Assembly: GCA_937885575.1 (NCBI GenBank)
Contig: CALABO010000013.1
Span: 46,438 to 110,437, forward strand
Length of the DNA stretch: 64,000 nucleotides
Direction of reading: 5' to 3'
Source: an uncultured Pseudomonadota bacterium
GTDB taxonomy: Bacteria; Pseudomonadota; Alphaproteobacteria; Rs-D84
Shown: positions 6,163-56,266 of the stretch, piece after piece
Layout: every line of letters starts with the position of its first letter
How positions within the stretch are numbered: the first letter of the stretch is position 1
Program-made: the position numbers and the translations under genes
The notes under the pieces: generated by a model
Database searches by the model: none
What the model saw: the letters and a program-made list of their open reading frames with translations, nothing else
Told to the model about the DNA's origin: nothing

Positions 6163-6286
6163 TGTTAGTGTAAGTGGGAAGTGGTTAGTATGCTCTGGAA
6201 TTTGTTCGTAATTACGGATTTATTCCAGAGCGCAAAGTTCTCCTCCTGCGGAGGAGTACGGCGTGGAACGCCGGGAGGTGGTCTTT
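6162..6286. repeat. Composite repeat unit: GTGGTTAGTG arm + TCTGGAAT/ATTCCAGA core + CCTCC-hairpin module
   Basis: 6181-6216 is a perfect inverted copy of 8549-8584. The module ttctcctcctgcggaggag..cggcgtggaacgccg..ggaggtggtctttt spans 6238-6286. Confidence 0.85.
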
Positions 6287-6668
6287 TCCCTCTGTCGCGT
6301 CAAAGACGCGACGAACAGAGGTTCGAAGTCGCGCCCATTTCATTTTTATCGTCATACCGCTGTAAAGCGGTATCTGGTGGTTTCAGCCGTGACGACGGGA
6401 TACCGCGTTTCGGCGGCATGACGGCATTTTTATTAGCCCCTTGCACCAACAATCATTTTATGATACAATTCATGTGCCGGCGGGTGTTCCGTTGGTGGGG
6501 TGTAACGACCCTTTTGAGTTGCGTCCAAATTCTGGATGAAAAGTACTCCAACCAATCGGTTGGAGGGCTGTGAATAATATCGGACCATGTCCGATAAAAT
6601 AAACACACAATTCCAACTCAAATTGTCGTTAACCTCCAACCACTTGAAGTAATTCGGTGGTTTTTTGA

Positions 6669-6719
6669 TTCCCCTTTCTGGGGAAAGGGGTGTCGCCGAA
6701 CGGCGACAGGGTATGGGTG
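6669..6719. repeat. Solo CCTCC-hairpin module (degenerate)
   Basis: Sequence ttcccctttctggggaaaggggtgtcgccgaacggcgacagggtatgggtg. It shows the same two-hairpin layout as the DUF559 cassette termini. Confidence 0.6.
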
Positions 6720-6735
6720 AAAAAAGAGAGAAACC

Positions 6736-8319
6736 ATGAAAAAATTTTTAACCGTTTTATGTTTATGCTTTGTATCAATTGATGTGTCGGCCGCCACGTA
6801 TGCATGTATAATGCAAGAAAAAGAAACTCTTATGCATGGCAGGTTAAGCGCAGGTGGTACGGAATTTTTATATTGTGGACATGTTGAAGACAAAGGGTGT
6901 GATGAAGGTGATGTAGTAAAGGGAGACAGAGAAAATGTGGCTAATCTTTTATGGAAATGTCATAATCATCATTGGATAAAAGTAGGTGAATCAGAGATTA
7001 GAGATTGCTCGTTGACAGAGAATTTAACAAATGAAGCGGTTGATGCGGTAAGCGAGACATCTAAATATGTGTTATATGGTGAATCTGACATGAGAAAACT
7101 TCATGATGGAGAAGAAGTCAAGAGTTGGGCTATCAAAGGTGGAATTGCTGGTGTATGCAAGATTAATTTAGCAGAGGCAAGAAAAGAGTGTGAAAAATCT
7201 GGCGGGACGCTAGAAGGCAGATATTGTAACTGTTCAAAGGATGGATATGCGCAAGGTGCAAATTTGACGGCACCGTGTGAGTGTGCGGATGGTTTGAAAA
7301 GAGGGGCCGATAACAAATGTTGGCCGGCACAATATGTTGATGGAAAGTGCTTGGTATACTTAAACCATATATATGATTGCCCACTTCCCGACGTTGGTCA
7401 CGAAGTAAATGGAATATTGTTTACCTATCTTGATAAGTATCGGTGTTCTTTTGTTTATAAAGATAGTAATTATTATCGTCTTTGTAATGATAATGGTAAA
7501 ATTATTAAAAAAATTGGTGTGGCATGTCCTGGATTTGATGATGAGTTAGCGTGGAATGCTTATGGAGAAGGTCGTTATAATCAGGAGGAAGATAAAGATG
7601 GTTTTCCGTGTATTAAACCTAAACCAGAATCCAAATACAACTATAAATCTTGTTCGGCTGATTCTGATTGCACGGGAATTGATAACACGGTGCGACCGTA
7701 TTTGCATTCGACGGCGTGGCACTGTGCGTGGCAAAGTGCGGGTGTGCGTGTTTGCGCCGCAACCGCGTGTGAATCGGGATGGACGCCGATAAATGGATAT
7801 TGCCAGGAAGACAAAACCGCGCAAACACCACAATCCGAAAATAAAAATGCTAATTCGGTATCCAATATCAAAACCGAAACGAAAGCGGGCACAAAGAAAC
7901 CCTGTACTGATTTGGATAATATGGATTCGAATTGCAAATGCATTGTTGTGGGAACGGTGGAACGTGGTGGAAAGTGCGTGTGTCGTGACGATAACCAAGA
8001 AATCAAAAATGGCAAATGTGAATGGACGGCAAAATATATTGCGGGGTTGGAAAGCGACCTTGATAGCAAATTTAACAATCTGACCGCAACGATTGGCGGG
8101 TTCGAAAAAAATGTATGGCGCGATGAAAATGGCGAATTTAACACCGCGCGCCTTGCGTCGGACAGTATTGCCGGTATTGTGCTGGGGACCGTTGGCGGAA
8201 TTGTGACGGCGAACCTTGTCAAAAAAGCCCAGGTTAAACAGGGATTTGAAGATATCGGTTGCTATATCGGCGGTCAATCCGTCGCCGGTTTCGGTGATGA
8301 ATTTAATGTTGGACGGTAA
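6736..8319 (+). CDS. Cysteine-rich secreted / membrane-anchored protein (527 aa)
   Basis: Signal peptide MKKFLTVLCLCFVSIDVSA. Many Cys in short-spaced clusters (CECADGLKRGADNKC; CKCIVVGTVERGGKCVC). C-terminal hydrophobic helix IAGIVLGTVGGIVTANLV. Visibly AT-richer than neighbours. Confidence 0.7.
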   Translation: MKKFLTVLCLCFVSIDVSAATYACIMQEKETLMHGRLSAGGTEFLYCGHVEDKGCDEGDVVKGDRENVANLLWKCHNHHWIKVGESEIRDCSLTENLTNEAVDAVSETSKYVLYGESDMRKLHDGEEVKSWAIKGGIAGVCKINLAEARKECEKSGGTLEGRYCNCSKDGYAQGANLTAPCECADGLKRGADNKCWPAQYVDGKCLVYLNHIYDCPLPDVGHEVNGILFTYLDKYRCSFVYKDSNYYRLCNDNGKIIKKIGVACPGFDDELAWNAYGEGRYNQEEDKDGFPCIKPKPESKYNYKSCSADSDCTGIDNTVRPYLHSTAWHCAWQSAGVRVCAATACESGWTPINGYCQEDKTAQTPQSENKNANSVSNIKTETKAGTKKPCTDLDNMDSNCKCIVVGTVERGGKCVCRDDNQEIKNGKCEWTAKYIAGLESDLDSKFNNLTATIGGFEKNVWRDENGEFNTARLASDSIAGIVLGTVGGIVTANLVKKAQVKQGFEDIGCYIGGQSVAGFGDEFNVGR

Positions 8320-8350
8320 ATAGTGGTAGTGTAAGTGATAAGTGTTAGTG

Positions 8351-8373
8351 CGGGCGCGGTTGCGCCCGTTTTT
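8351..8373 (+). terminator. Intrinsic terminator after the Cys-rich gene
   Basis: Stem-loop cgggcgc-ggtt-gcgcccg followed by ttttt. Confidence 0.7.
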
Positions 8374-8397
8374 GCGCAAAAATTCCAGAGTACGAGG

Positions 8398-8527
8398 TTC
8401 TCCTCCTGTGGAGGAGTACCCGAAGGGGGAGGTGGTCTTTTATAAATATAAAATATCTGGAATATGAAAGACCACCCCGTCCGCTTTCGCTATCGCTGCA
8501 GCGAGACACCCCTCCACAGGAGGGGAA
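8398..8527. mobile_element. ORF-less inverted pair of CCTCC-hairpin modules (MITE-like shell of the DUF559 cassette)
   Basis: 8398-8441 (..ggaggtggtctttt) and 8467-8527 (aaagaccacc..) are inverted copies separated by 25 nt. The termini have the same architecture as at 37405/37850 and 53665/54190, but there is no ORF. Confidence 0.6.
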
Positions 8528-8602
8528 CTTAGCTTTCTGGAATAACCACGTAATTACGAACAAATTCCAGAGCATACTAACCACTAACACTTACACTACC
8601 CA

Positions 8603-28833: not shown

Positions 28834-28973
28834 GTGGTTAGTGCTAGTGTAAGTGGTTAGTAGTGTCTGGAATAAATCTGTAATTGCGCAATAATTCCAG
28901 AAAGCAAAGTTCCCCTCTCGAGATGGGTGGCCGAAGGCCGGGGTGTGGTTCTCTAACCACTACCACTAACCAC
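28834..28973. repeat. Composite palindromic repeat, long form (arms + core + embedded CCTCC module 28910-28954)
   Basis: Left arm gtggttagtgctagtgtaagtggttagtagtgtctggaat, then ..attccagaa-agcaaag-ttcccctc..ggggtgtggtt, then right arm taaccactaccactaaccac. TA at 28974-28975. Confidence 0.85.
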
Positions 28974-29899
28974 TACATACTTTCCAATCGTCGAATCCTT
29001 TCCGCAATCGGTGGGTGGGTTGCCATAATTTCGCCAAAAAACGCGCGCGTCCGTGTTGGGTTCGCGATGCATATTGCCGCCATCGTTTTGCGCCCATCAA
29101 GGTTTTTAACAACCGAATGTTCCGAAATTTTACGCAGTGCCGTCGCGAGTGCCCGCGGATTTCGGGTTATGTACGCACCCGTCGCATCCGCCGCATATTC
29201 ACGCCGCCGCGAAATCGCCATATGCAAAATCGGCGAAATCACAACATTGAAAAGTGTGAACGCCAACCACACCATCATTATCACCGCCGCGCCATTGTTT
29301 TTATCATCGCCATCCGAACGCGCATACATCATATTCCGCGCCAGCATATCCGCAATAAAGACCGTCACGCCAATGCCGGTAATGATGAACATGCTAAGCC
29401 GTATGTCGCGATTGCCGATGTGTGCCATTTCGTGGGCGATTACACCCTCCAGTTCCGGTCGGTCCAATTTTTCGATAATTCCACGGGTGAGCGCCACCGT
29501 CGCATCACGCGGCCCGCGCCCCGTTGCGAACGCGTTAAGGCCACCGTCTTCGATAACATAAACCCGTGGTGTTGGCAACCCGGCGGCGATTGCGACATTT
29601 TCCACCGATTTATAAACATACCTGTATTCTGGGTCGGTGTCGCCTATCTGCTTTGCGCCCGCCATGGAAAGCATCATCGAATCCCCAAACGCCCATGATA
29701 TCAGCATCCAAACGGCGCACACAGCAATCGTCGGCACCGCCACCATAGTGGTTGTATTGATTGCATCATTTAACGGTTGCACACACCAAACACAGATGAA
29801 CACCAACGCAATAAAAATAACCGGAAACAGCACCACCAACACCGCGGTTTTTATGTTGTTTGCACGTATATGGTCATAAACAGTTTTGACTTTTTTCAT
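28973..29899 (-). CDS. htpX: Zinc metalloprotease HtpX (M48)
   Basis: 308 aa from ATG 29899. HEMAHIGNRD motif and TM helices. The stop TAG is formed at a repeat edge. The ORF-track 5' extension runs through a repeat. Confidence 0.88.
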   Translation of the reverse strand: MKKVKTVYDHIRANNIKTAVLVVLFPVIFIALVFICVWCVQPLNDAINTTTMVAVPTIAVCAVWMLISWAFGDSMMLSMAGAKQIGDTDPEYRYVYKSVENVAIAAGLPTPRVYVIEDGGLNAFATGRGPRDATVALTRGIIEKLDRPELEGVIAHEMAHIGNRDIRLSMFIITGIGVTVFIADMLARNMMYARSDGDDKNNGAAVIMMVWLAFTLFNVVISPILHMAISRRREYAADATGAYITRNPRALATALRKISEHSVVKNLDGRKTMAAICIANPTRTRAFFGEIMATHPPIAERIRRLESM

Positions 29900-35118: not shown

Positions 35119-36033
35119 ATGTGTGCTATTGTTTATGGTATGAGTAAGACATATTCTGGATTTATCGCGATTGCGGGGCCGACAAACGCCGGCAAAAGCA
35201 CCCTGTTGAATCAAATCATGGGGCGCAAGGTTTCAATTGTTTCGCACAAGGTTCAAACAACGCGAACGAACCTGCGTGCCGTGAAAATGGTTGGGACACG
35301 ACAATTGATTTTTGTTGATACCCCTGGGATTTTCCGACCCGCCCGTCGCCTTGACCGCGCAATGGTTTCGGCGGCGATGACCGCGCTTTCCGATGCGGAT
35401 GCGGTTTTGTTGATCATCGATGCGACCAAGGGAATTACCGATACGGTGCGCGAAATCATCGGAAAAATCCGCGAACATAAAAATCTGTTTGTTGCGCTAA
35501 ATAAAACCGATGCGGTAAAGAAAAGTGAACTTTTGCCGATTGCCGCGGAATTAAACGAAATGGCGAATTTTCGTGAAATCTTTATGATTTCGGCAATGAA
35601 AAATGACGGTGTTGCGGAAATGTTGACGTCGTTGGCGGCGGTTATGCCGGCATCGCCATATTTGTTTGATGCGGCGGACGCAACCGATGTGCCGGATAAT
35701 TTATACCTTGCGGAATTGACGCGGGAAAAGGTTTATCGTTATATTCACCAAGAATTGCCGTATCACATAAATGTCGTAACGGAACGTGTTGATGTCGATG
35801 CCGACGGGGTACTTGATATTTATCAGAAAATCGTTGTGCAAAGTGATGCACATAAAAAGATTGTGATTGGACGCGCAGGGGCGCAACTTAAAAAAATTGG
35901 AACGGCGGCGCGGCATGATATCCAAGATCAATGGGGCGTGAACGCGCGTTTGCATTTGTTCGTGCGCGTGGAACCGGATTGGGAAAACACCGCCGAAAAT
36001 TACACCGACCAAGGTTTAGAGTTTAAGAAATAA
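35119..36033 (+). CDS. era: GTPase Era
   Basis: GPTNAGKST, DTPG and NKTD motifs plus a C-terminal KH domain. The start could also be ATG 35140. Confidence 0.92.
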   Translation: MCAIVYGMSKTYSGFIAIAGPTNAGKSTLLNQIMGRKVSIVSHKVQTTRTNLRAVKMVGTRQLIFVDTPGIFRPARRLDRAMVSAAMTALSDADAVLLIIDATKGITDTVREIIGKIREHKNLFVALNKTDAVKKSELLPIAAELNEMANFREIFMISAMKNDGVAEMLTSLAAVMPASPYLFDAADATDVPDNLYLAELTREKVYRYIHQELPYHINVVTERVDVDADGVLDIYQKIVVQSDAHKKIVIGRAGAQLKKIGTAARHDIQDQWGVNARLHLFVRVEPDWENTAENYTDQGLEFKK

Positions 36034-36157
36034 AAGGACATAAAAATGAAAATTTGTATGTGAGAACGAGTGTAAACGAAGTTCGAACAACTACAAATTT
36101 GCGCGCAAGGCGCAAGCCGAGCGAAAAAATATAAACAAATAACAAAGGAATCAAAAT

Positions 36158-36622
36158 ATGAAAGTTAATCAAAATATAAAAATCAATCCAAAATATAAAT
36201 TGATGGCGTTGTTATCATTGCTGTTGGCGATGGGGTGCGCACGATATGAACACAAGAATGTCATTCAGGGAATTAGTAAAAAGGATAAAACCAGAATATT
36301 TTTACTAAAGGATGCCGAAACCAACGAAGAAAGAATTTTATCGATTGAACCCGCATGGAACTCTTATGTTGATATTTATGCGGATTATGATTATCTGCAA
36401 CCTGGTGATACGGTGGTGGTTTATGTTAGGGGGCTTTTATCTGATGGGTATTATTCGCACTCCAAGGTTTTGTCACCGGAAAAAACTTATGGCGATGTTG
36501 GAATGGTGTATGAATATATGTCAGATACGCTTGCCGCACGTAAAATCCGTGCCGGATTTAATAAAGAATGCGAAACTTTTGAAGCATTAAAGCAAGATAT
36601 GCAACATACTACAAAAAGATAA
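36158..36622 (+). CDS. Lipoprotein (154 aa)
   Basis: Lipobox LLAMGC. AT-rich. The stop abuts the queA ATG (TAAATG). Confidence 0.65.
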   Translation: MKVNQNIKINPKYKLMALLSLLLAMGCARYEHKNVIQGISKKDKTRIFLLKDAETNEERILSIEPAWNSYVDIYADYDYLQPGDTVVVYVRGLLSDGYYSHSKVLSPEKTYGDVGMVYEYMSDTLAARKIRAGFNKECETFEALKQDMQHTTKR

Positions 36623-38185
36623 ATGCTGCACACATCGGATTTTGATTTTGAATTGCCACCGGAACTTATCGCATCGCACCCGCTTGCGCGCCGTGACGCA
36701 TCACGTATGTTGGTGGTGGAACCCAGCGGGACCGGGGGAAAACTATCCATTTCTGACAAACATATTCGGGATTTTTTAGATTACCTGCGCCCCGGCGATG
36801 TTGTTGTGTTTAACAATTCGCGGGTAATTCCGGCGCGCTTTGATGCGGACGGTCACGAAATCACGCTGCATACCGCGGTTGACGATAAAAATTGGTGGGG
36901 CCTGTGTAAAAAGTTCAACAAAATAAACATTGGCGACACGCTGACCATGGCGGACGGCACAACAATAACCGTTATGGATAAAGACGACGAAAGTGGCCTT
37001 TTGCTGCGGTTTAATTGCGATAATGTGTTCGATGTCTTGAACCGCGTTGGCAAAATGCCGCTGCCACCGTATATGAAGCGCGATGCCGAAATCGCCGATC
37101 AAACGCGTTATCAAACGGTCTATGCCGACCCATTGGGGTCGATGGCGGCACCGACGGCGGGGTTGCACTTTACCGATGAATTGATGCATGAAATAGAGGC
37201 GCGCGGCGCAAAAATAGTAAAAATCACATTGCATGTTGGCGCGGGAACATGGATGCCGGTTAAAACTGAAAATCTTTCCGAACATAAAATGCACAGTGAA
37301 TGGTGCCAAATCACACCCGCCCAGGCCGACATTATAAACGCCGCAACGCGTGTAATCGCCGTCGGCACAACAACGCTCCGCACATTGGAATCCGCCGCGT
37401 CAAGTTCCCCTCCTTTGGAGGGGTGGCGGGTAGCACCCGCCGGGGTGGTTAGAGACACCGCAAACTATCGCACATTACCATTTAATCCAAACCTGAAACA
37501 ACGCGCCCGCGAATTGCGCCACGCAGGCAGCCTGCCCGAAGCATTATTGTGGCGTGAAATATCCGGCAAAAAAATAAACGGATTAAATTTTAATCGCCAA
37601 ACGGTAATTGGGAATTATATTGTTGATTTCTTTTGTCCCAAAACAGGGCTGGTTATTGAAATAGATGACAAAGCGTCGCATGATATCAAGGGCGCATACG
37701 ATGAAAAACGCGAAAAATTTTTGACTTCATTGGGGCTGACGACTTTGCATATTCCCGCCGCAGATGTGTTAAAAGATGTGTCGTCTGTTGCAAGCATGAT
37801 TGCGCGACACCCCGTCGCCGTTCGGCGCCACCCCTCTGGCCAGAGGGGAACTTGCTTCGGTTTCCAAACGAACACAACCATAAAGACATCGCGGCCCAAT
37901 TCCCCTCTGGCCAGAGGGGTGGCGGGTGGAACCCGCCGGAGTGTCGCCCCGCGTGTTGCACCGTTTTGTGGTACGACGGATATTTTTATCACACCGGGAT
38001 ATAAATTCCGTGCGGTTGACGTGTTGCTTACGAATTTTCATTTGCCCAAAAGTACACTCTTCATGTTGGTGTCGGCGTTTAGTGGACTTGAGCAGATGAA
38101 AGCCGCATACGCCCACGCCGTCGCCGAAAAATACCGTTTTTTCAGTTATGGCGATTGCTGTTTATTGTTTAGAAAGGATTCATAA
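36623..38185 (+). CDS. queA: S-adenosylmethionine:tRNA ribosyltransferase-isomerase QueA carrying an in-frame insertion of roughly 180 aa
   Basis: Single 520-aa ORF. It has canonical QueA blocks (..PLPPYM.., ..YQTVYA.., ..GLHFT.., ..VGTTTLRTLESAA and ..TDIFITPGYKFRAVDVLLTNFHLPKSTL..) with foreign sequence between the last two. Confidence 0.9.
   Translation: MLHTSDFDFELPPELIASHPLARRDASRMLVVEPSGTGGKLSISDKHIRDFLDYLRPGDVVVFNNSRVIPARFDADGHEITLHTAVDDKNWWGLCKKFNKINIGDTLTMADGTTITVMDKDDESGLLLRFNCDNVFDVLNRVGKMPLPPYMKRDAEIADQTRYQTVYADPLGSMAAPTAGLHFTDELMHEIEARGAKIVKITLHVGAGTWMPVKTENLSEHKMHSEWCQITPAQADIINAATRVIAVGTTTLRTLESAASSSPPLEGWRVAPAGVVRDTANYRTLPFNPNLKQRARELRHAGSLPEALLWREISGKKINGLNFNRQTVIGNYIVDFFCPKTGLVIEIDDKASHDIKGAYDEKREKFLTSLGLTTLHIPAADVLKDVSSVASMIARHPVAVRRHPSGQRGTCFGFQTNTTIKTSRPNSPLARGVAGGTRRSVAPRVAPFCGTTDIFITPGYKFRAVDVLLTNFHLPKSTLFMLVSAFSGLEQMKAAYAHAVAEKYRFFSYGDCCLLFRKDS
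37405..37943 (+). mobile_element. DUF559-nuclease cassette inserted in frame in queA (TIR 37405-37450, DUF559 domain, inverted TIR 37808-37850, solo module 37900-37943)
   Basis: Left end ttcccctcctttggaggggtggcgggtagcacccgccggggtggtt. Internal ..LPEALLWREI..GLNFNRQTVIGNYIVDFFCPKTGLVIEIDDKASHD.. is homologous to the 53727-54071 protein. Right end gccacccctctggccagaggggaa. Confidence 0.8.
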
Positions 38186-38643
38186 TGCAAGATAGAAAAT
38201 TAGATCTTCATCGTGGCAGTAAAGATTTTAAGATGTTGGGTTGGCCATTTGTTACGGCCTTGTTTTTCGAGATTGATTTTTATGAAAGTGATTTAAATTC
38301 TATAAATTATATAAAATCACACCCCTTATTTCGATATGTAAACGGAAATGTTTTTGGCAATACAATGGGTATAAGTATGGACGTATATTTTGTTCGGACA
38401 GTTTTTTATGAACAATTTTTTGATGACCAAAATTTAACACCAAGGGCTCAATTTTGGTTGAGAACATATCTTGGAAATATGTATAAGATTATGGAAAGCT
38501 TCGGTATAGAGATAACTGATAAAGAAGGTAATTATGTATTTGACGAAAAAGGTGAAATAAAAACTACGTCATATGCTGAAATATTCGCACTTCGCCGACC
38601 ACTTATTGAAAGATGGCTTGAACGCGGTAAAGCATGGAGTTAG
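38185..38643 (+). CDS. Hypothetical protein (152 aa) wedged between queA and tgt
   Basis: The ATG overlaps the queA stop (TAATG), and its stop lies 3 nt before the tgt ATG. Visibly AT-rich. No motif recognised. Confidence 0.6.
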   Translation: MQDRKLDLHRGSKDFKMLGWPFVTALFFEIDFYESDLNSINYIKSHPLFRYVNGNVFGNTMGISMDVYFVRTVFYEQFFDDQNLTPRAQFWLRTYLGNMYKIMESFGIEITDKEGNYVFDEKGEIKTTSYAEIFALRRPLIERWLERGKAWS

Positions 38644-38646
38644 AAA

Positions 38647-39753
38647 ATGTCACTAAAATTTTGTCTTTTAGCAACGGATGGGAATGCACGGCGGGGCAGT
38701 GTGGAAACCGCACATGGAACTTTTCAAACGCCGGCGTTTATGGCGGTTGGTACGGCGGCAACGGTCAAGGCACTTACCATGGACCAAGTGGCGGCGACGG
38801 GAACCCAGGTTATTTTGGGCAACACATATCATCTGATGATGCGGCCCGGCGGTGAATTGGTGGAACGCATGGGCGGGCTGCATAAATTCAGTGGTTGGCA
38901 CGGGCCGATTTTGACGGACAGTGGCGGTTTTCAGGTTATGTCGCTTTCGAACCTTGTTAAAATGAAGGAAGAGGGCGTAGAATTCACATCGCACATTGAC
39001 GGCGGAATTAAACATTTCCTGCGGCCCGAAGATTCTGTGCATATTCAACATCAATTGGATTCCAATATCACAATGGTTTTGGACGAATGTTTGAAATTAC
39101 CGACAACGCGCGAACGCGCGGAAAAAAATGTTGATATGGTGACGCGTTGGGCGGCGCGCAGTAAAAACGCGTTTGTTGATCGCCCTGGCTATGGTATTTT
39201 CGGCATTGTCCAAGGTGCGGATTATCCCGACCTGCGTGAAAAGTCCGCACGGGAACTGACCGCAATTGGGTTTGACGGGTATGCAATTGGCGGATTGGCC
39301 GTTGGTGAACCGCAAAGCGTTATGTTTGATATGATATCGGTTGTTGCGCCAATGTTGCCAACGGATAAACCGCGGTATTTAATGGGCGTTGGAACACCAC
39401 TGGATATTTTGGGTGCGGTGGAACGCGGTGTCGATATGTTTGATTGTGTTATGCCAACGCGCGCGGGTCGCACCGCGATGGCGTTTACGCGCCATGGCAC
39501 AATGAATATGCGCAACGCGAAATACCGCGATGATGATGCGCCATTGGACGACAAATGTGGTTGCCCGGCGTGTAAACTTTCGCGCGCGTATTTGCACCAC
39601 CTTATAAAGTGCAATGAAATTTTGGGTGCAACGCTTCTCACGCAACACAACCTTTGGTTCTATCAAGACCTGATGCGCGACATTCGCGAAAGCATAGAGC
39701 AGGGCCGTTTTGCCGAATTCAAGGCAGAGTTTATAAAGAATTATACCGAATAA
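38647..39753 (+). CDS. tgt: tRNA-guanine transglycosylase
   Basis: Contains ..TDSGGFQV.., ..GLAVGE.. and the zinc site CGCPAC. Confidence 0.93.
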   Translation: MSLKFCLLATDGNARRGSVETAHGTFQTPAFMAVGTAATVKALTMDQVAATGTQVILGNTYHLMMRPGGELVERMGGLHKFSGWHGPILTDSGGFQVMSLSNLVKMKEEGVEFTSHIDGGIKHFLRPEDSVHIQHQLDSNITMVLDECLKLPTTRERAEKNVDMVTRWAARSKNAFVDRPGYGIFGIVQGADYPDLREKSARELTAIGFDGYAIGGLAVGEPQSVMFDMISVVAPMLPTDKPRYLMGVGTPLDILGAVERGVDMFDCVMPTRAGRTAMAFTRHGTMNMRNAKYRDDDAPLDDKCGCPACKLSRAYLHHLIKCNEILGATLLTQHNLWFYQDLMRDIRESIEQGRFAEFKAEFIKNYTE

Positions 39754-53612: not shown

Positions 53613-53660
53613 TTATGCCAATGCGCCGACGGACATAGTTATCCGGCGGATGCCACTGCT
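53613..53660 (-). pseudogene. Detached second copy of the alaS 3' terminus (15 codons + TAA)
   Basis: The minus-strand translation is SSGIRRITMSVGALA*, identical to the live alaS end at 54191-54238. There are 6 nucleotide differences, all synonymous third positions. Confidence 0.85.
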
Positions 53661-54190
53661 CAAATTCCCCTTCACACAGTGAAGGGGTGGCCATGGCACC
53701 GCTTGCGGTAACAGGCCGGGGTAGTTTTACAATATTCCGTTAATCGTTGAATAATCGTGTTCAATGTTACGTTTTACATCAATATCTGCAATATGCCAAA
53801 TTTTCAAGTTCCATGACGCCAAATAATCATCGCGTGCCCGATCATATTCTTGCTTATTATCATGTGATTCGCCATCTATTTCTATCACAAGGTTTAATTC
53901 TGCACAATAAAAGTCAACGATATAATTGCCAATGATTCTCTGACGGTCAAAATCCAATCCGCAGATTTGTTTGTTTTTTACCGCGTTCCAAAATAATACT
54001 TCCGCCAGTGTGGAATTTTTTCTTAACTCTCGCGCACGTTCTTTCAAAGACATGTTTGCTGGAAACTTCATTATAAACTATCTCGCTTCACATATTGAAA
54101 AACTACCCCACCGGCTTTCGCCGGTCCCCCCCTTCACAAAATCGGGCCCCGCAAAATTTGAAAAATTTTGTGGGTGATAGCCGAAGGGGA
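53661..54190 (-). mobile_element. DUF559-nuclease cassette with hairpin-type terminal inverted repeats
   Basis: Termini lie at 53665-53728 (ttccccttcac-aca-gtgaagggg..ggccggggtagtttt) and 54097-54190 (aaaactacccc..ccccttcac..gaagggga) around ORF 53727-54071. Confidence 0.75.
53727..54071 (-). CDS. DUF559 / Vsr-like PD-(D/E)xK endonuclease domain protein
   Basis: 114 aa containing ..STLAEVLFWNAV..GLDFDRQRIIGNYIVDFYCAELNLVIEIDGESHD... Confidence 0.8.
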   Translation of the reverse strand: MKFPANMSLKERARELRKNSTLAEVLFWNAVKNKQICGLDFDRQRIIGNYIVDFYCAELNLVIEIDGESHDNKQEYDRARDDYLASWNLKIWHIADIDVKRNIEHDYSTINGIL

Positions 54191-56266
54191 TTAGGCCAAT
54201 GCGCCGACGGACATTGTGATACGGCGAATTCCACTGCTGATGGATTTTTCCTTGTTTATCTTTGCGCGCAAAATTTCGCCGGTGTGATTTACATGCGTTC
54301 CGCCACACAGTTCGCATGACACATCGCCCGCGGTTATCACGCGCACGACATCGCCATACTTTTCCCCGAACAGTGCCATCGCCCCGCGCTTTTTCGCCGC
54401 ATCAATCGGCATCTCTTCGTGTTTAACGGGTATATCGGCCGCAATCCATTTATTCACCAAATCTTCAACCGCCGTTTTTTCTTCCGCCGTCATTGCGCGC
54501 CCAAATGAAAAGTCAAACCGCACGGAATCCGGCGCGACCCGCGAGCCACGTTGTTCCACATCGGTATTCAGAACTTGTCGCAATGCGGCTTGCAACAAAT
54601 GTGTTGCGGTATGCGCGCGCGCCGTCTGTGCCCGAACATCCGCGTTTATAACCGGCGTCACAGTGTCACCCACAGAAATTTTTCCAACAACCGTTCCGCG
54701 ATGCAAAACAACATTATTCGCACGCGTGGCATCCGTCACATCAAGAACGACGTTGTCGCCGATTTTCAATTTGCCGCTGTCGCCAACCTGGCCACCCTGG
54801 GTGCCATAGAAATTTGTTTTATCCAAAGCAACCTCTACCACATCGCCGTCGGTTGCGGTGTCCACGAATTCTTCGCCACGCAGTATCGCCAAAACGCGCG
54901 ATTGCATATCGGCAATGGGTGCATACTTTGCCATGTCATCCGTCGCCACAACATCGGTGCGCGATTCCCAAAGTATTTTTGTTCCGCGTGTGTCGGCGCG
55001 ACTGCGTTCCTTTTGCGCCGCCATTTCGGATTCGAATTCCGCGACATCGACATCAATGCCACGTTCGCGCAAAATCATTTGCGTTAAATCAAGCGGAAAC
55101 CCATACGTATCAAATAACTTAAACGCGACCGCACCCGGCAAAGTTTTCCCCGAAAGTTTCGGCAATTCGTTGTCCAATAATTTCATACCATTGTTCAACA
55201 TATCGGCAAAGGCGTTTTCTTCGTTCGTTATGATTTCAACAACGTGCGCTTGGTTTTTGGCAAGTTCCGGATATGTTTCGCCCATCTGTTCCACCAATGC
55301 CGGATAAAGTTTCGACAGCAACGCGCCCGAATGCCCAAGCAGCTGACCATGCCGCATCGCGCGCCGCAAAATACGGCGAATCACATAACCACGGTCGGTG
55401 TTCGAAGGAATCACACCGTCCGCAATCGCAAATCCAACCGAACGCAAGTGGTCAGTGATAACCTTGAAACTGGTTTTATTCGTGTCGGTTTCTTTAACAC
55501 CCGTCACGTCACTCACCGCGCGTTTAAGGTTCCGGAATAAATCGGTGTCATAGTTATCAAATTTACCTTGCAACATTGCCGCCCATCGTTCCAGTCCCGC
55601 ACCCGTATCAACATTTTGCTTTGGCAATTTTGTTAAATTCCCATTTGCATCGCGGTCGTATTGCATAAACACATCGTTCCAAATTTCAACAAAACGCCCG
55701 CCGTCTTCGTCCGGTGTGCCCGGCAGCCCCCCCGGAATATCCGCACCAAAGTCATAGAAAATTTCACTGCACGGGCCACACGGGCCGGTGTCGCCCGCCG
55801 ACCACCAGTTATCTTTATCCAAACGAATTGCATCCTTGCCCGCGACTTTTTTCCAAATTTCCGTTGCTTCATCATCGGAAATATGTGTCGTCACGACAAG
55901 GCGCGCCGGGTCAATCCCAATAACACGCGTCAATAAATCCCACGACATTTCGATTGCACCGTCCTTGAAATAATCGCCAAACGACCAATTCCCCATCATT
56001 TCAAAGAAAGTATGATGCCGACCGTCAAAACCAACATCTTCCAAATCATTATGTTTTCCGCCCGCACGAATACACTTTTGCACGTCGGCCACACGCGGCG
56101 CCGGTGCGGGTTCAAGCCCCTGTAATATCCCCTTCCACGGAACCATGCCGGCGACAGTGAACAATAATGTCGGGTCGTTCGGTATAAGTGACGCAGACGG
56201 TACAATTTTATGCCCGTGCGATTCAAAATAATCCAAGAAAACTTTTCTAATTTCATCATATGTCAT
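54191..56266 (-). CDS. alaS: Alanine--tRNA ligase (short form, ends after the editing domain)
   Basis: 691 aa. Class II catalytic core plus ..HTATHLLQAAL.. and ..CGGTHV.. editing-site motifs. No C-Ala region. Confidence 0.92.
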   Translation of the reverse strand: MTYDEIRKVFLDYFESHGHKIVPSASLIPNDPTLLFTVAGMVPWKGILQGLEPAPAPRVADVQKCIRAGGKHNDLEDVGFDGRHHTFFEMMGNWSFGDYFKDGAIEMSWDLLTRVIGIDPARLVVTTHISDDEATEIWKKVAGKDAIRLDKDNWWSAGDTGPCGPCSEIFYDFGADIPGGLPGTPDEDGGRFVEIWNDVFMQYDRDANGNLTKLPKQNVDTGAGLERWAAMLQGKFDNYDTDLFRNLKRAVSDVTGVKETDTNKTSFKVITDHLRSVGFAIADGVIPSNTDRGYVIRRILRRAMRHGQLLGHSGALLSKLYPALVEQMGETYPELAKNQAHVVEIITNEENAFADMLNNGMKLLDNELPKLSGKTLPGAVAFKLFDTYGFPLDLTQMILRERGIDVDVAEFESEMAAQKERSRADTRGTKILWESRTDVVATDDMAKYAPIADMQSRVLAILRGEEFVDTATDGDVVEVALDKTNFYGTQGGQVGDSGKLKIGDNVVLDVTDATRANNVVLHRGTVVGKISVGDTVTPVINADVRAQTARAHTATHLLQAALRQVLNTDVEQRGSRVAPDSVRFDFSFGRAMTAEEKTAVEDLVNKWIAADIPVKHEEMPIDAAKKRGAMALFGEKYGDVVRVITAGDVSCELCGGTHVNHTGEILRAKINKEKSISSGIRRITMSVGALA

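Follow-up and report, generated by a model that had tools for sequence, protein, structure and literature searches.

Palindromic repeats that lie in frame within genes and are translated together with the host protein were reportedly described by Ogata et al. in 2000 as the Rickettsia palindromic elements (RPEs); to our knowledge RPEs encode no protein, and we know of no enzyme for them. Here we analyze a queA gene that carries, in frame, a cassette of hairpin modules and a DUF559 nuclease domain. It lies within a stretch of 64,000 nt, hereafter the window, from an uncultured Pseudomonadota bacterium (Alphaproteobacteria, Rs-D84; assembly GCA_937885575.1, contig CALABO010000013.1, positions 46,438-110,437). 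The original prediction, made from the letters of the window, had likened this arrangement to RPEs as a foreign, unspliced palindromic insertion in frame, and the likeness is supported, with modules translated inside host proteins; solo modules behave just as RPEs do. The queA unit differs in that it carries a conserved nuclease translated in frame, in that its module sequence is another one, and in that it occurs in many phyla rather than in one genus. We consider it likely that the unit is a selfish mobile DNA cassette that survives in coding sequence by translation and not by splicing, with a mobility that we infer to be driven by its nuclease.

The closest published analogue that we found is the ShiLan-type insertion in actinophage DNA methylases, which undergoes no splicing, lacks stops in the frame of the host and harbours, in a different frame, an HNH gene with its own GTG and stop (PMC11855218). 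Common to both are the lack of intein and intron features, a homing-like pattern of presence and absence, association with an endonuclease, a predicted loop-out and a methylase host; no hairpin termini are described for the ShiLan insertion, whereas here a DUF559/Vsr-like nuclease lies in the host frame between inverted hairpin modules (PMC11855218). A second group for comparison is that of the Vsr-like 'EDxHD' homing endonucleases, among which I-Bth0305I cuts a pseudopalindromic target beside its insertion site and drives homing (PMC3239194). Those known sit in group I introns, in inteins or in split-intein 'fractured genes', where splicing restores the host (PMC3239194, PMC2677866). The queA nuclease has the same fold and shares the E, D, H and D residues with them (PMC3239194, PMC2677866), and comparison with the published composite motif located these residues in the window domain (PMC3239194). 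The EDxHD enzymes have an extra N-terminal DNA-binding region, whereas the queA nuclease consists of about 115 aa plus linkers, with no splicing element.

The queA gene (36623..38185, + strand) is one 520-aa open reading frame (ORF), as originally stated and as borne out by the ORF list, Pfam and NCBIfam. Its product gives a split match to Queuosine_synth (PF02547, E 1e-116; aa 4-268 plus a C-terminal part) and scores 417 bits against the QueA equivalog NF001140, for which the cut-off is 324. The host parts (aa 1-259 and 444-520) match the PDB QueA structures 1yy3 and 1vky, with a break between residues 269 and 279 of 1yy3 (B. subtilis); the segment within the break matches the DUF559 structure 3hrl by sequence. 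Alignments of filled and empty alleles, at both DNA and protein level, delimit the foreign block at 37400..37951 (+ strand; 552 nt, 184 codons, aa 260-443), between ..TLESAA and RVAP... The prediction of about 180 foreign residues was therefore close in length, with the correction that the block is not a pure insertion: it stands in place of a native 7-residue loop, QNAVPGE in empty alleles.

The block opens with the left terminal module (37400..37449, + strand; repeat and pattern searches, nhmmer E 2e-9), made up of the outer end AAGTTCCCC, hairpin 1 (37407-37423, CCCCTCC/GGAGGGG), hairpin 2 (37425-37441) and a GGGGTGGT box (37442-37449), and translated as SSSPPLEGWRVAPAGVV. It is followed by the DUF559 domain (Vsr-like PD-(D/E)xK; 37493..37804, + strand, aa 291-394; Pfam E 2e-24), which has neither an ATG nor a stop of its own, and by the right terminal module in inverted orientation (37803..37856, - strand; inverted repeats I6, I8 and I9, nhmmer E 4e-6), with hairpin 1 at 37831-37848, the outer end GGGGAACTT and the translation HPVAVRRHPSGQRG. 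Beyond these lie a 49-nt spacer, TCFGFQTNTTIKTSRPN (37851..37899, + strand), between the 25-nt perfect arms of inverted repeat I1, and a third module (37895..37948, + strand; direct repeat D1 and inverted repeat I1, nhmmer E 8e-8; hairpin 1 37902-37919, hairpin 2 37921-37937), which reads NSPLARGVAGGTRRSVA. The third module is directly oriented relative to the left one and 90% identical to it over 30 nt. Three modules and the 49-nt spacer had been anticipated, and repeat and pattern searches recovered them with refined coordinates. That the domain lacks its own start was correct for ATG, which does not occur in frame before it; an in-frame TTG (37415) and GTG (37445) are present. The window contains four occurrences of the palindrome CCCCTC-N-GAGGGG (0.00 expected), of which three are inside queA, each of these followed by a second hairpin, and two of GGCGGG-N-CCCGCC (0.02 expected).

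In an alignment of 120 related QueA clusters obtained by whole-protein search, sequence comparison shows this cassette to be a foreign mobile element and not a native QueA domain, because near-identical orthologues lack it and because it occupies different loops. Normal-length QueA orthologues (P0090, P0099, P0100 and P0103; 342-360 aa), 92-97% identical over the aligned part, have no DUF559; their alignment defines the empty site, as foreseen in the original prediction, so the domain is not universal. These orthologues and the varied loop occupancy rule out a native QueA domain. More than 100 QueA clusters found by the whole-protein search, of 480-730 aa, do contain DUF559. Site A is the loop after ..SRMLVV and site B, used in the window, the loop after ..TLESAA; a third loop, after ..ARFDA, holds solo modules only. 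Among the 120 clusters the cassette is at site A only in 40, at site B only in 29 and at both in 8; many carry solo modules, and 11 are empty at all three loops. Presence and absence at a fixed host site (QueA sites A and B, and HsdR, below) is a trait shared with homing endonuclease genes; residence in an intron or intein is not, the queA copy lying in frame in an ORF and a second copy in the window being free-standing.

Variants of the cassette do not keep to one site. Site B holds the REISGKKINGLNFNRQTV variant, with the 49-nt spacer and third module, in the window, in L006 and in L007, and in L005 (P0007) this variant is at site A, the spacer travelling with its cassette variant also in P0001, P0003 and P0005; the NEIKNKKLNGLDFDRQKI variant likewise occurs at both sites. 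One nuclease lineage per queA site is thus ruled out. The window and L003, with a synonymous divergence (dS) of 0.37 between their host genes, nevertheless hold different cassette variants at site B, and sites A and B are polymorphic between filled and empty among alleles with dS of 0.4-0.8. Some empty alleles resemble footprints, for example LVVRSSNGGELLD, and if the left and third modules recombined, the outcome would be exactly the solo module of P0106.

A second, unrelated-looking cassette family was observed in the same QueA loops (P0037, P0088, P0095, P0101 and P0108; in solo form P0090/L001, P0118 and P0112). Its termini read PALAAGSQSASxNDARCGGG and its nuclease is a more divergent DUF559/MTES_1575-like protein (..HHQYRSxxIK..). 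The QueA loops have therefore been hit by at least two element families.

The block is free of stops in the queA frame, and over 100 alleles from independent assemblies preserve that frame, as expected from the claim that it is restored after the insert. The 66 queA codons 3' of the insert have ratios of nonsynonymous to synonymous substitution (dN/dS) of 0.02-0.13 among site-B cassette alleles, even where dS exceeds 2. The DUF559 core, measured against copies of its own variant at dS of 0.27-0.49, gives dN/dS of 0.06-0.07, and host queA of these pairs gives 0.02-0.07. Because the downstream codons are under constraint, this selection analysis shows that ribosomes evidently read in frame through the cassette and that QueA stays functional. 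The fusion is predicted to be 57 kDa, against about 38 kDa for normal QueA, with the junction-spanning peptides TLESAASSSPPLEGWR and ...SVAPRVAPFCGTTDIFITPGYK. An AlphaFold2 (AF2) model of it gives the DUF559 domain a predicted local distance difference test (pLDDT) score of 75-90 and the module-encoded residues 264-280 and 399-440 scores below 50; the two module-encoded linkers are probably flexible tethers that hold the nuclease domain at a surface loop. It might be objected that so long an ORF results from faulty assembly or belongs to a pseudogene in decay, since G+C-rich palindromes can mislead assemblers and the data are all metagenomic. Strong purifying selection on both the insert and downstream queA, and the recurrence of the same architecture in many independent assemblies from different projects, reduce this to a negligible probability.

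A more substantial objection is that an undiscovered kind of splicing, whether a new type of intein or RNA excision through module pairing, restores a QueA of normal size. Base pairing between the inverted modules of the mRNA could draw the junctions together, and Vsr-like nucleases do occur inside inteins and group I introns (PMC2677866, PMC3239194). A Pfam scan at E up to 0.01 gave PF02547 and PF04480 only, with no Hint/intein domain, and the junctions read A|S...P|R: the insert starts with S, ends in ..SVAP and is followed by R, in place of the intein pattern C/S/T...HN|C/S/T. The absent Hint domain and the wrong junction residues rule out an intein, in agreement with the original remark that intein junction motifs are missing. 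When 36000-39000 was scanned with Rfam, allowing E up to 1, no intron or ribozyme was returned, just two chance microRNA matches on the palindrome, which rules out known RNA elements. Moreover, an element excised as RNA need not stay open and in frame, yet of the 80 loci introduced below 29 are open in the nuclease's frame for 100 codons or more on each side and 47 on one side at least, and whereas inteins typically occupy conserved catalytic motifs, these insertions are in variable loops at the surface. We regard splicing of any kind as very improbable. With inteins the cassette has in common that it is an in-frame selfish insertion in a conserved protein, often accompanied in their case by a homing endonuclease domain; it differs in having neither Hint domain nor junction residues, in sitting in variable loops and in evidently being kept in the mature protein.

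The nuclease domain itself is a clear family member, matching PF04480 with 85.8 bits (cut-off 20.6) over 103 of 109 profile positions. The D of VDF, the E-x-D of EID and the H-D of the window copy, residues said in the original prediction to be retained, all fall on invariant family columns; the core residues D54, E65, D67 and H72 are invariant columns in alignment A3 and are invariant again in 46 embedded copies. Modeled alone (AF2 pLDDT 88), the domain has template modeling (TM) scores of 0.79 to 3hrl, 0.70 to I-Bth0305I (3r3p, with a Foldseek probability of 1.0) and 0.40 to Vsr (1vsr). Judged from the model, the solved structures nearest to it are 3hrl and that of the homing endonuclease I-Bth0305I (catalytic domain), with Vsr more distant. 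Among 1.84 billion representative proteins, the DUF559 profile matched 32,413 clusters (50% identity) when E was limited to 0.001; with a limit of 1e-10 there were 16,181. DUF559 is the sole domain that Pfam finds encoded in the queA cassette; no known transposase (DDE, HUH, serine or tyrosine) is among its matches.

The plan of the cassette is two inverted terminal modules around a DUF559 ORF without start or stop. In each module an invariant hairpin (AAGTTCCCCTCC-N3-GGAGGGG) is followed by a second one, whose stem sequence varies freely yet stays paired, and then by the GGGGTGGT box, and the consensus is near-invariant across phyla: AATTCCCCTCC-N3-GGAGGGGTGG-[stem-loop]-CGGGGTGGT. The modules carry no stop in any of the three frames, and different copies are read in all of them, as SPPLEGW, FPSxGGV or VPLLRRG; the conservation that we see in the alignments is at the DNA level and not at the peptide level. 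Perfect stems of at least 4 bp occur in hairpin 2 of 76% of 131 unique segments, versus 12% of shuffled ones, and the 65 different stem sequences represent covariation. The loops are of the form C-GNA-G in 53 of 118 cases (CGAAG 31, CGCAG 11, CGTAG 6, CGGAG 5), and d(GCGNAGC)-type loops form an extraordinarily stable DNA mini-hairpin (PMC13037366, PMC3201870). These mini-hairpin loops therefore point to single-stranded or extruded DNA as the putative active form of the module.

This architecture invites comparison with transposable elements. In REP/RAYT systems (repetitive extragenic palindromes with their associated tyrosine transposases; REPtrons) and in IS200/IS605 elements, as here, an enzyme gene lies between inverted G+C-rich hairpins that are probably single-stranded when active, and enzyme-less copies are scattered about; those systems, however, use HUH tyrosine transposases and are extragenic, whereas here a PD-(D/E)xK nuclease lies inside ORFs. 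[quoted passage not shown] As to target-site duplication, none is seen at queA sites A and B, and a 48-nt duplication flanks the copy adjacent to alaS (below).

The same unit recurs well beyond queA. We examined the best 80 of at least 557 relatives from a scan of public genomes that was anchored on the nuclease alone. These 80 loci span Alphaproteobacteria, Bacteroidota, Cloacimonadota, Calditrichota, Chloroflexota, Bacillota, Saccharibacteria and other phyla. In the 76 of them covered by the module-flank counts, hairpin 1 is found upstream in 69, inverted downstream in 61 and on both sides in 56, against a background of 28 of 2238 windows. The nuclease is fused in frame to a larger host ORF in 47 of the 80; in 29 the nuclease frame is open for 100 codons or more on each side. 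Pfam confirmed, among others, the hosts PriA, HsdR, enzymes of Eco57I type and type ISP, N6_N4 methylases and a radical-SAM enzyme; in HsdR a single fixed site, between its nuclease and motor domains, holds the cassette in 19 loci. From the protein library, 48 of the best 150 clusters are at least 300 aa long and have the domain in an internal position, and the 46 scanned include restriction-modification hosts (type ISP, 12; HsdS, 9; Eco57I, 5; other methylases) as well as the housekeeping hosts iPGM, Mur ligase, aminotransferase, fumarase and aldolase. The protein search added a GNAT acetyltransferase, a Bro-N protein and XseA as further in-frame hosts. We also observed that the hosts of embedded cassettes (L020-L077, P0241-P0384) are mainly restriction-modification proteins, including HsdS, type ISP and Eco57I/MmeI-type enzymes as well as N6_N4 methylases, and that up to four modules in tandem often stand beside the nuclease.

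Embedded and free-standing copies appear to differ in how they are expressed. An ATG lies 1-6 nt past the GGGGTGGT box in 13 of 21 free-standing copies with the box, versus 2 of 38 embedded copies with the box; the box may act as a ribosome-binding site in free-standing copies, and embedded copies may depend on host translation. In the queA cassette, the GTG at 37445 (+ strand) lies within the GGGGTGGT box, with a strong GGAGGGG 21-28 nt upstream, across hairpin 2. We speculate that hairpin 2, when folded, would give a spacing suited to an internal start for a product made of DUF559 and the QueA C-terminus.

An alternative reading of these distributions is that the modules are REP- or MITE-like repeats moved by another enzyme or by host recombination, and that DUF559 is cargo or has been exapted, for instance as a nuclease for repair, defence or addiction. 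DUF559 has no known activity, modules without a nuclease are common both singly and in pairs, an extra nuclease could be useful to the restriction-modification hosts that are enriched, and purifying selection on the domain fits a benefit to the host equally well. This reading sits poorly with the 56 of 76 loci, in many phyla, where inverted modules flank this one DUF559 subfamily, no other cargo having been seen between modules. Nor is a common added function plausible for hosts as unrelated as QueA, PriA, Mur ligase, iPGM, fumarase and aminotransferase, and in QueA the domain is dispensable, near-identical alleles being without it. We judge the cargo explanation unlikely.

The bracketing of the nuclease by inverted repeats raises one more alternative, that the DUF559 segment is an invertible phase-variation switch which silences queA and other hosts when flipped. 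A survey of programmed inversions found DUF559 proteins enriched among genes within inverted repeats and left this unexplained, 'DUF559 domain-containing protein' being 14-fold enriched among the predicted targets (PMC9881135). Such enrichment is expected, however, for any gene flanked by inverted repeats. Of the queA alleles, more than 100 in number, none has the segment inverted, perfect identity between the left and right modules is confined to short stretches of 10-12 nt, and the neighbours of queA (era, a small ORF and tgt) include no invertase gene. Inversion seems to us a slim prospect, slimmer even than splicing.

We return to the selfish cassette, for which a mechanism can be proposed. 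The nuclease would be the element's own mobility enzyme, made through transcription and translation of the host gene. It would most likely recognize the modules with their hairpins or palindromes, probably in a single-stranded or extruded form, which we propose because of the C-GNA-G mini-hairpins; module-bearing or empty sites are alternative targets. It would nick or cut at the recognized site, and recombinational repair from a filled copy would then spread the cassette by homing. Occasional microhomology-guided jumps could take it to new sites resembling the outer end (GGGGAAC); this heptamer is present in some empty alleles at both queA sites, exactly where the outer end (..GGAGGGGAAC) meets the host. 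Recombination between direct modules would delete the nuclease and leave solo modules. Homing-type copying is suggested by the frame-free modules, the properties of hairpin 2, the two expression forms, the relatives of the nuclease and the GGGGAAC junctions.

Several points weigh against this proposal. First, we know of no demonstrated transposase or homing activity for DUF559. Second, the cassette dS of 0.27-0.49 is near the host dS of 0.43-0.59, so that movement was not very recent; a recent horizontal arrival of the window's cassette is unsupported, its dS resembling that of the host. The distribution could largely reflect vertical descent plus homologous recombination between alleles. Third, junction comparison of filled and empty alleles reveals no target-site duplication at queA sites A or B, 15 nt of the native loop are absent at site-B junctions, and the GGGGAAC match at the right junction is restricted to some empty alleles. 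Fourth, the strong excess of restriction-modification hosts is not predicted by a purely selfish model. Finally, every sequence analyzed derives from metagenome assemblies; the named genomes nearest to the window queA are gut metagenome-assembled genomes of Candidatus Enterousia and other uncultured Alphaproteobacteria.

A broader proposal, to which we give a little less than an even chance, is that this DUF559 subfamily is the enzyme of unrecognized, phylum-spanning autonomous elements that live inside ORFs. Their hairpin termini would be stop-free in every frame, and the elements would alternate between an embedded form, whose nuclease lacks start and stop and is produced by read-through of the host ribosome alone, and a free-standing form expressed via the GGGGTGGT box and ATG; they would prefer restriction-modification genes, possibly to their own advantage.

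Beyond the queA cassette, the one that the original prediction treats, the window holds another DUF559 cassette, free-standing, and five or more further modules. The second cassette (53613..54238, - strand; tblastn E 2e-29, 48% identity to the queA copy) lies directly after alaS, and its DUF559 gene (53727-54071, - strand) has its own ATG and TAA. Its modules, at 54101-54190 and 53661-53726, are inverted and of a CCCCTTC/GAAGGGG variant. Around the cassette the 48-nt 3' end of alaS is duplicated (54191-54238 and 53613-53660), the two tails differing at 6 of 48 positions, all synonymous, and the nuclease frame, its own TAA aside, continues in frame into the second alaS tail. The closest eight alaS relatives that we read have a single tail and no cassette, and a metagenome scan of 80 loci contained no in-frame alaS-DUF559 allele and no relative filled at the alaS site. 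The cassette looks like a former in-frame insertion that has been 'released', or like a Campbell-type integration. A small palindrome with an A+T-rich stem, CCCACAAAATTTTTCAAATTTTGCGGGGCCC, was observed nested in the hairpin-1 loop of the left module (54141-54181, - strand); related copies lie just past alaS in L094 and L095, and it may belong to another repeat family.

The remaining modules of the window comprise an intergenic, nuclease-less pair (left, + strand, 8391-8444; right, - strand, 8473-8534; nhmmer E 1e-9 and 2e-7) and solo modules at 6232-6290, 6668-6718 and 28904-28954 (nhmmer E 7e-5, 4e-3 and 0.016). The pair (8391..8534) encloses an A+T-rich spacer of about 30 nt and is a MITE-like derivative. 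A 37-nt perfect inverted repeat (6180-6216 and 8549-8585) together with modules brackets a gene (6736-8319) whose product is a Cys-rich protein of 527 aa, signal-like at its N-terminus; the bracketed segment, 6180-8585, could be invertible or mobile. The repeat unit there includes a conserved TTATTCCAGA flank and short repeats of the AACCACTA type, and recurs at 28880-28975.

Downstream of queA, tgt is at 38647-39753, and the queA-tgt neighbourhood is likewise found in L002, L003, L005 and L007. The stop codon of queA overlaps the start of the next ORF (ATAATG). This intergene ORF (38185-38643, + strand) varies among close relatives (L001, L002, L003, L005 and L007), some having a 152-160-aa ORF without a Pfam match, as in the window, and others an M16 peptidase.

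We found no prior description of the element in the full-text literature, subscription-only literature being outside the scope of the search, and the family of module plus DUF559 cassettes appears undescribed. If our interpretation is true, DUF559, a very large family of unknown function, would gain a role as the nuclease of a hairpin-ended mobile cassette. Such a cassette would represent a third route, besides introns and inteins, by which a nuclease-carrying selfish element is tolerated in an essential-type gene, here by being translated as an additional domain tethered at a tolerant loop. HsdR-DUF559, methylase-DUF559, QueA-DUF559 and other chimeric annotations of this type would then be insertions and not designed fusions, a warning against inferring function from them, and the insertions would mark natural sites of tolerance to domain insertion in many enzymes. 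The nuclease, compact at about 115 aa, may recognize structured or palindromic DNA and would be of practical interest. Finally, the preference for restriction-modification genes raises the question of a conflict between mobile element and defence.

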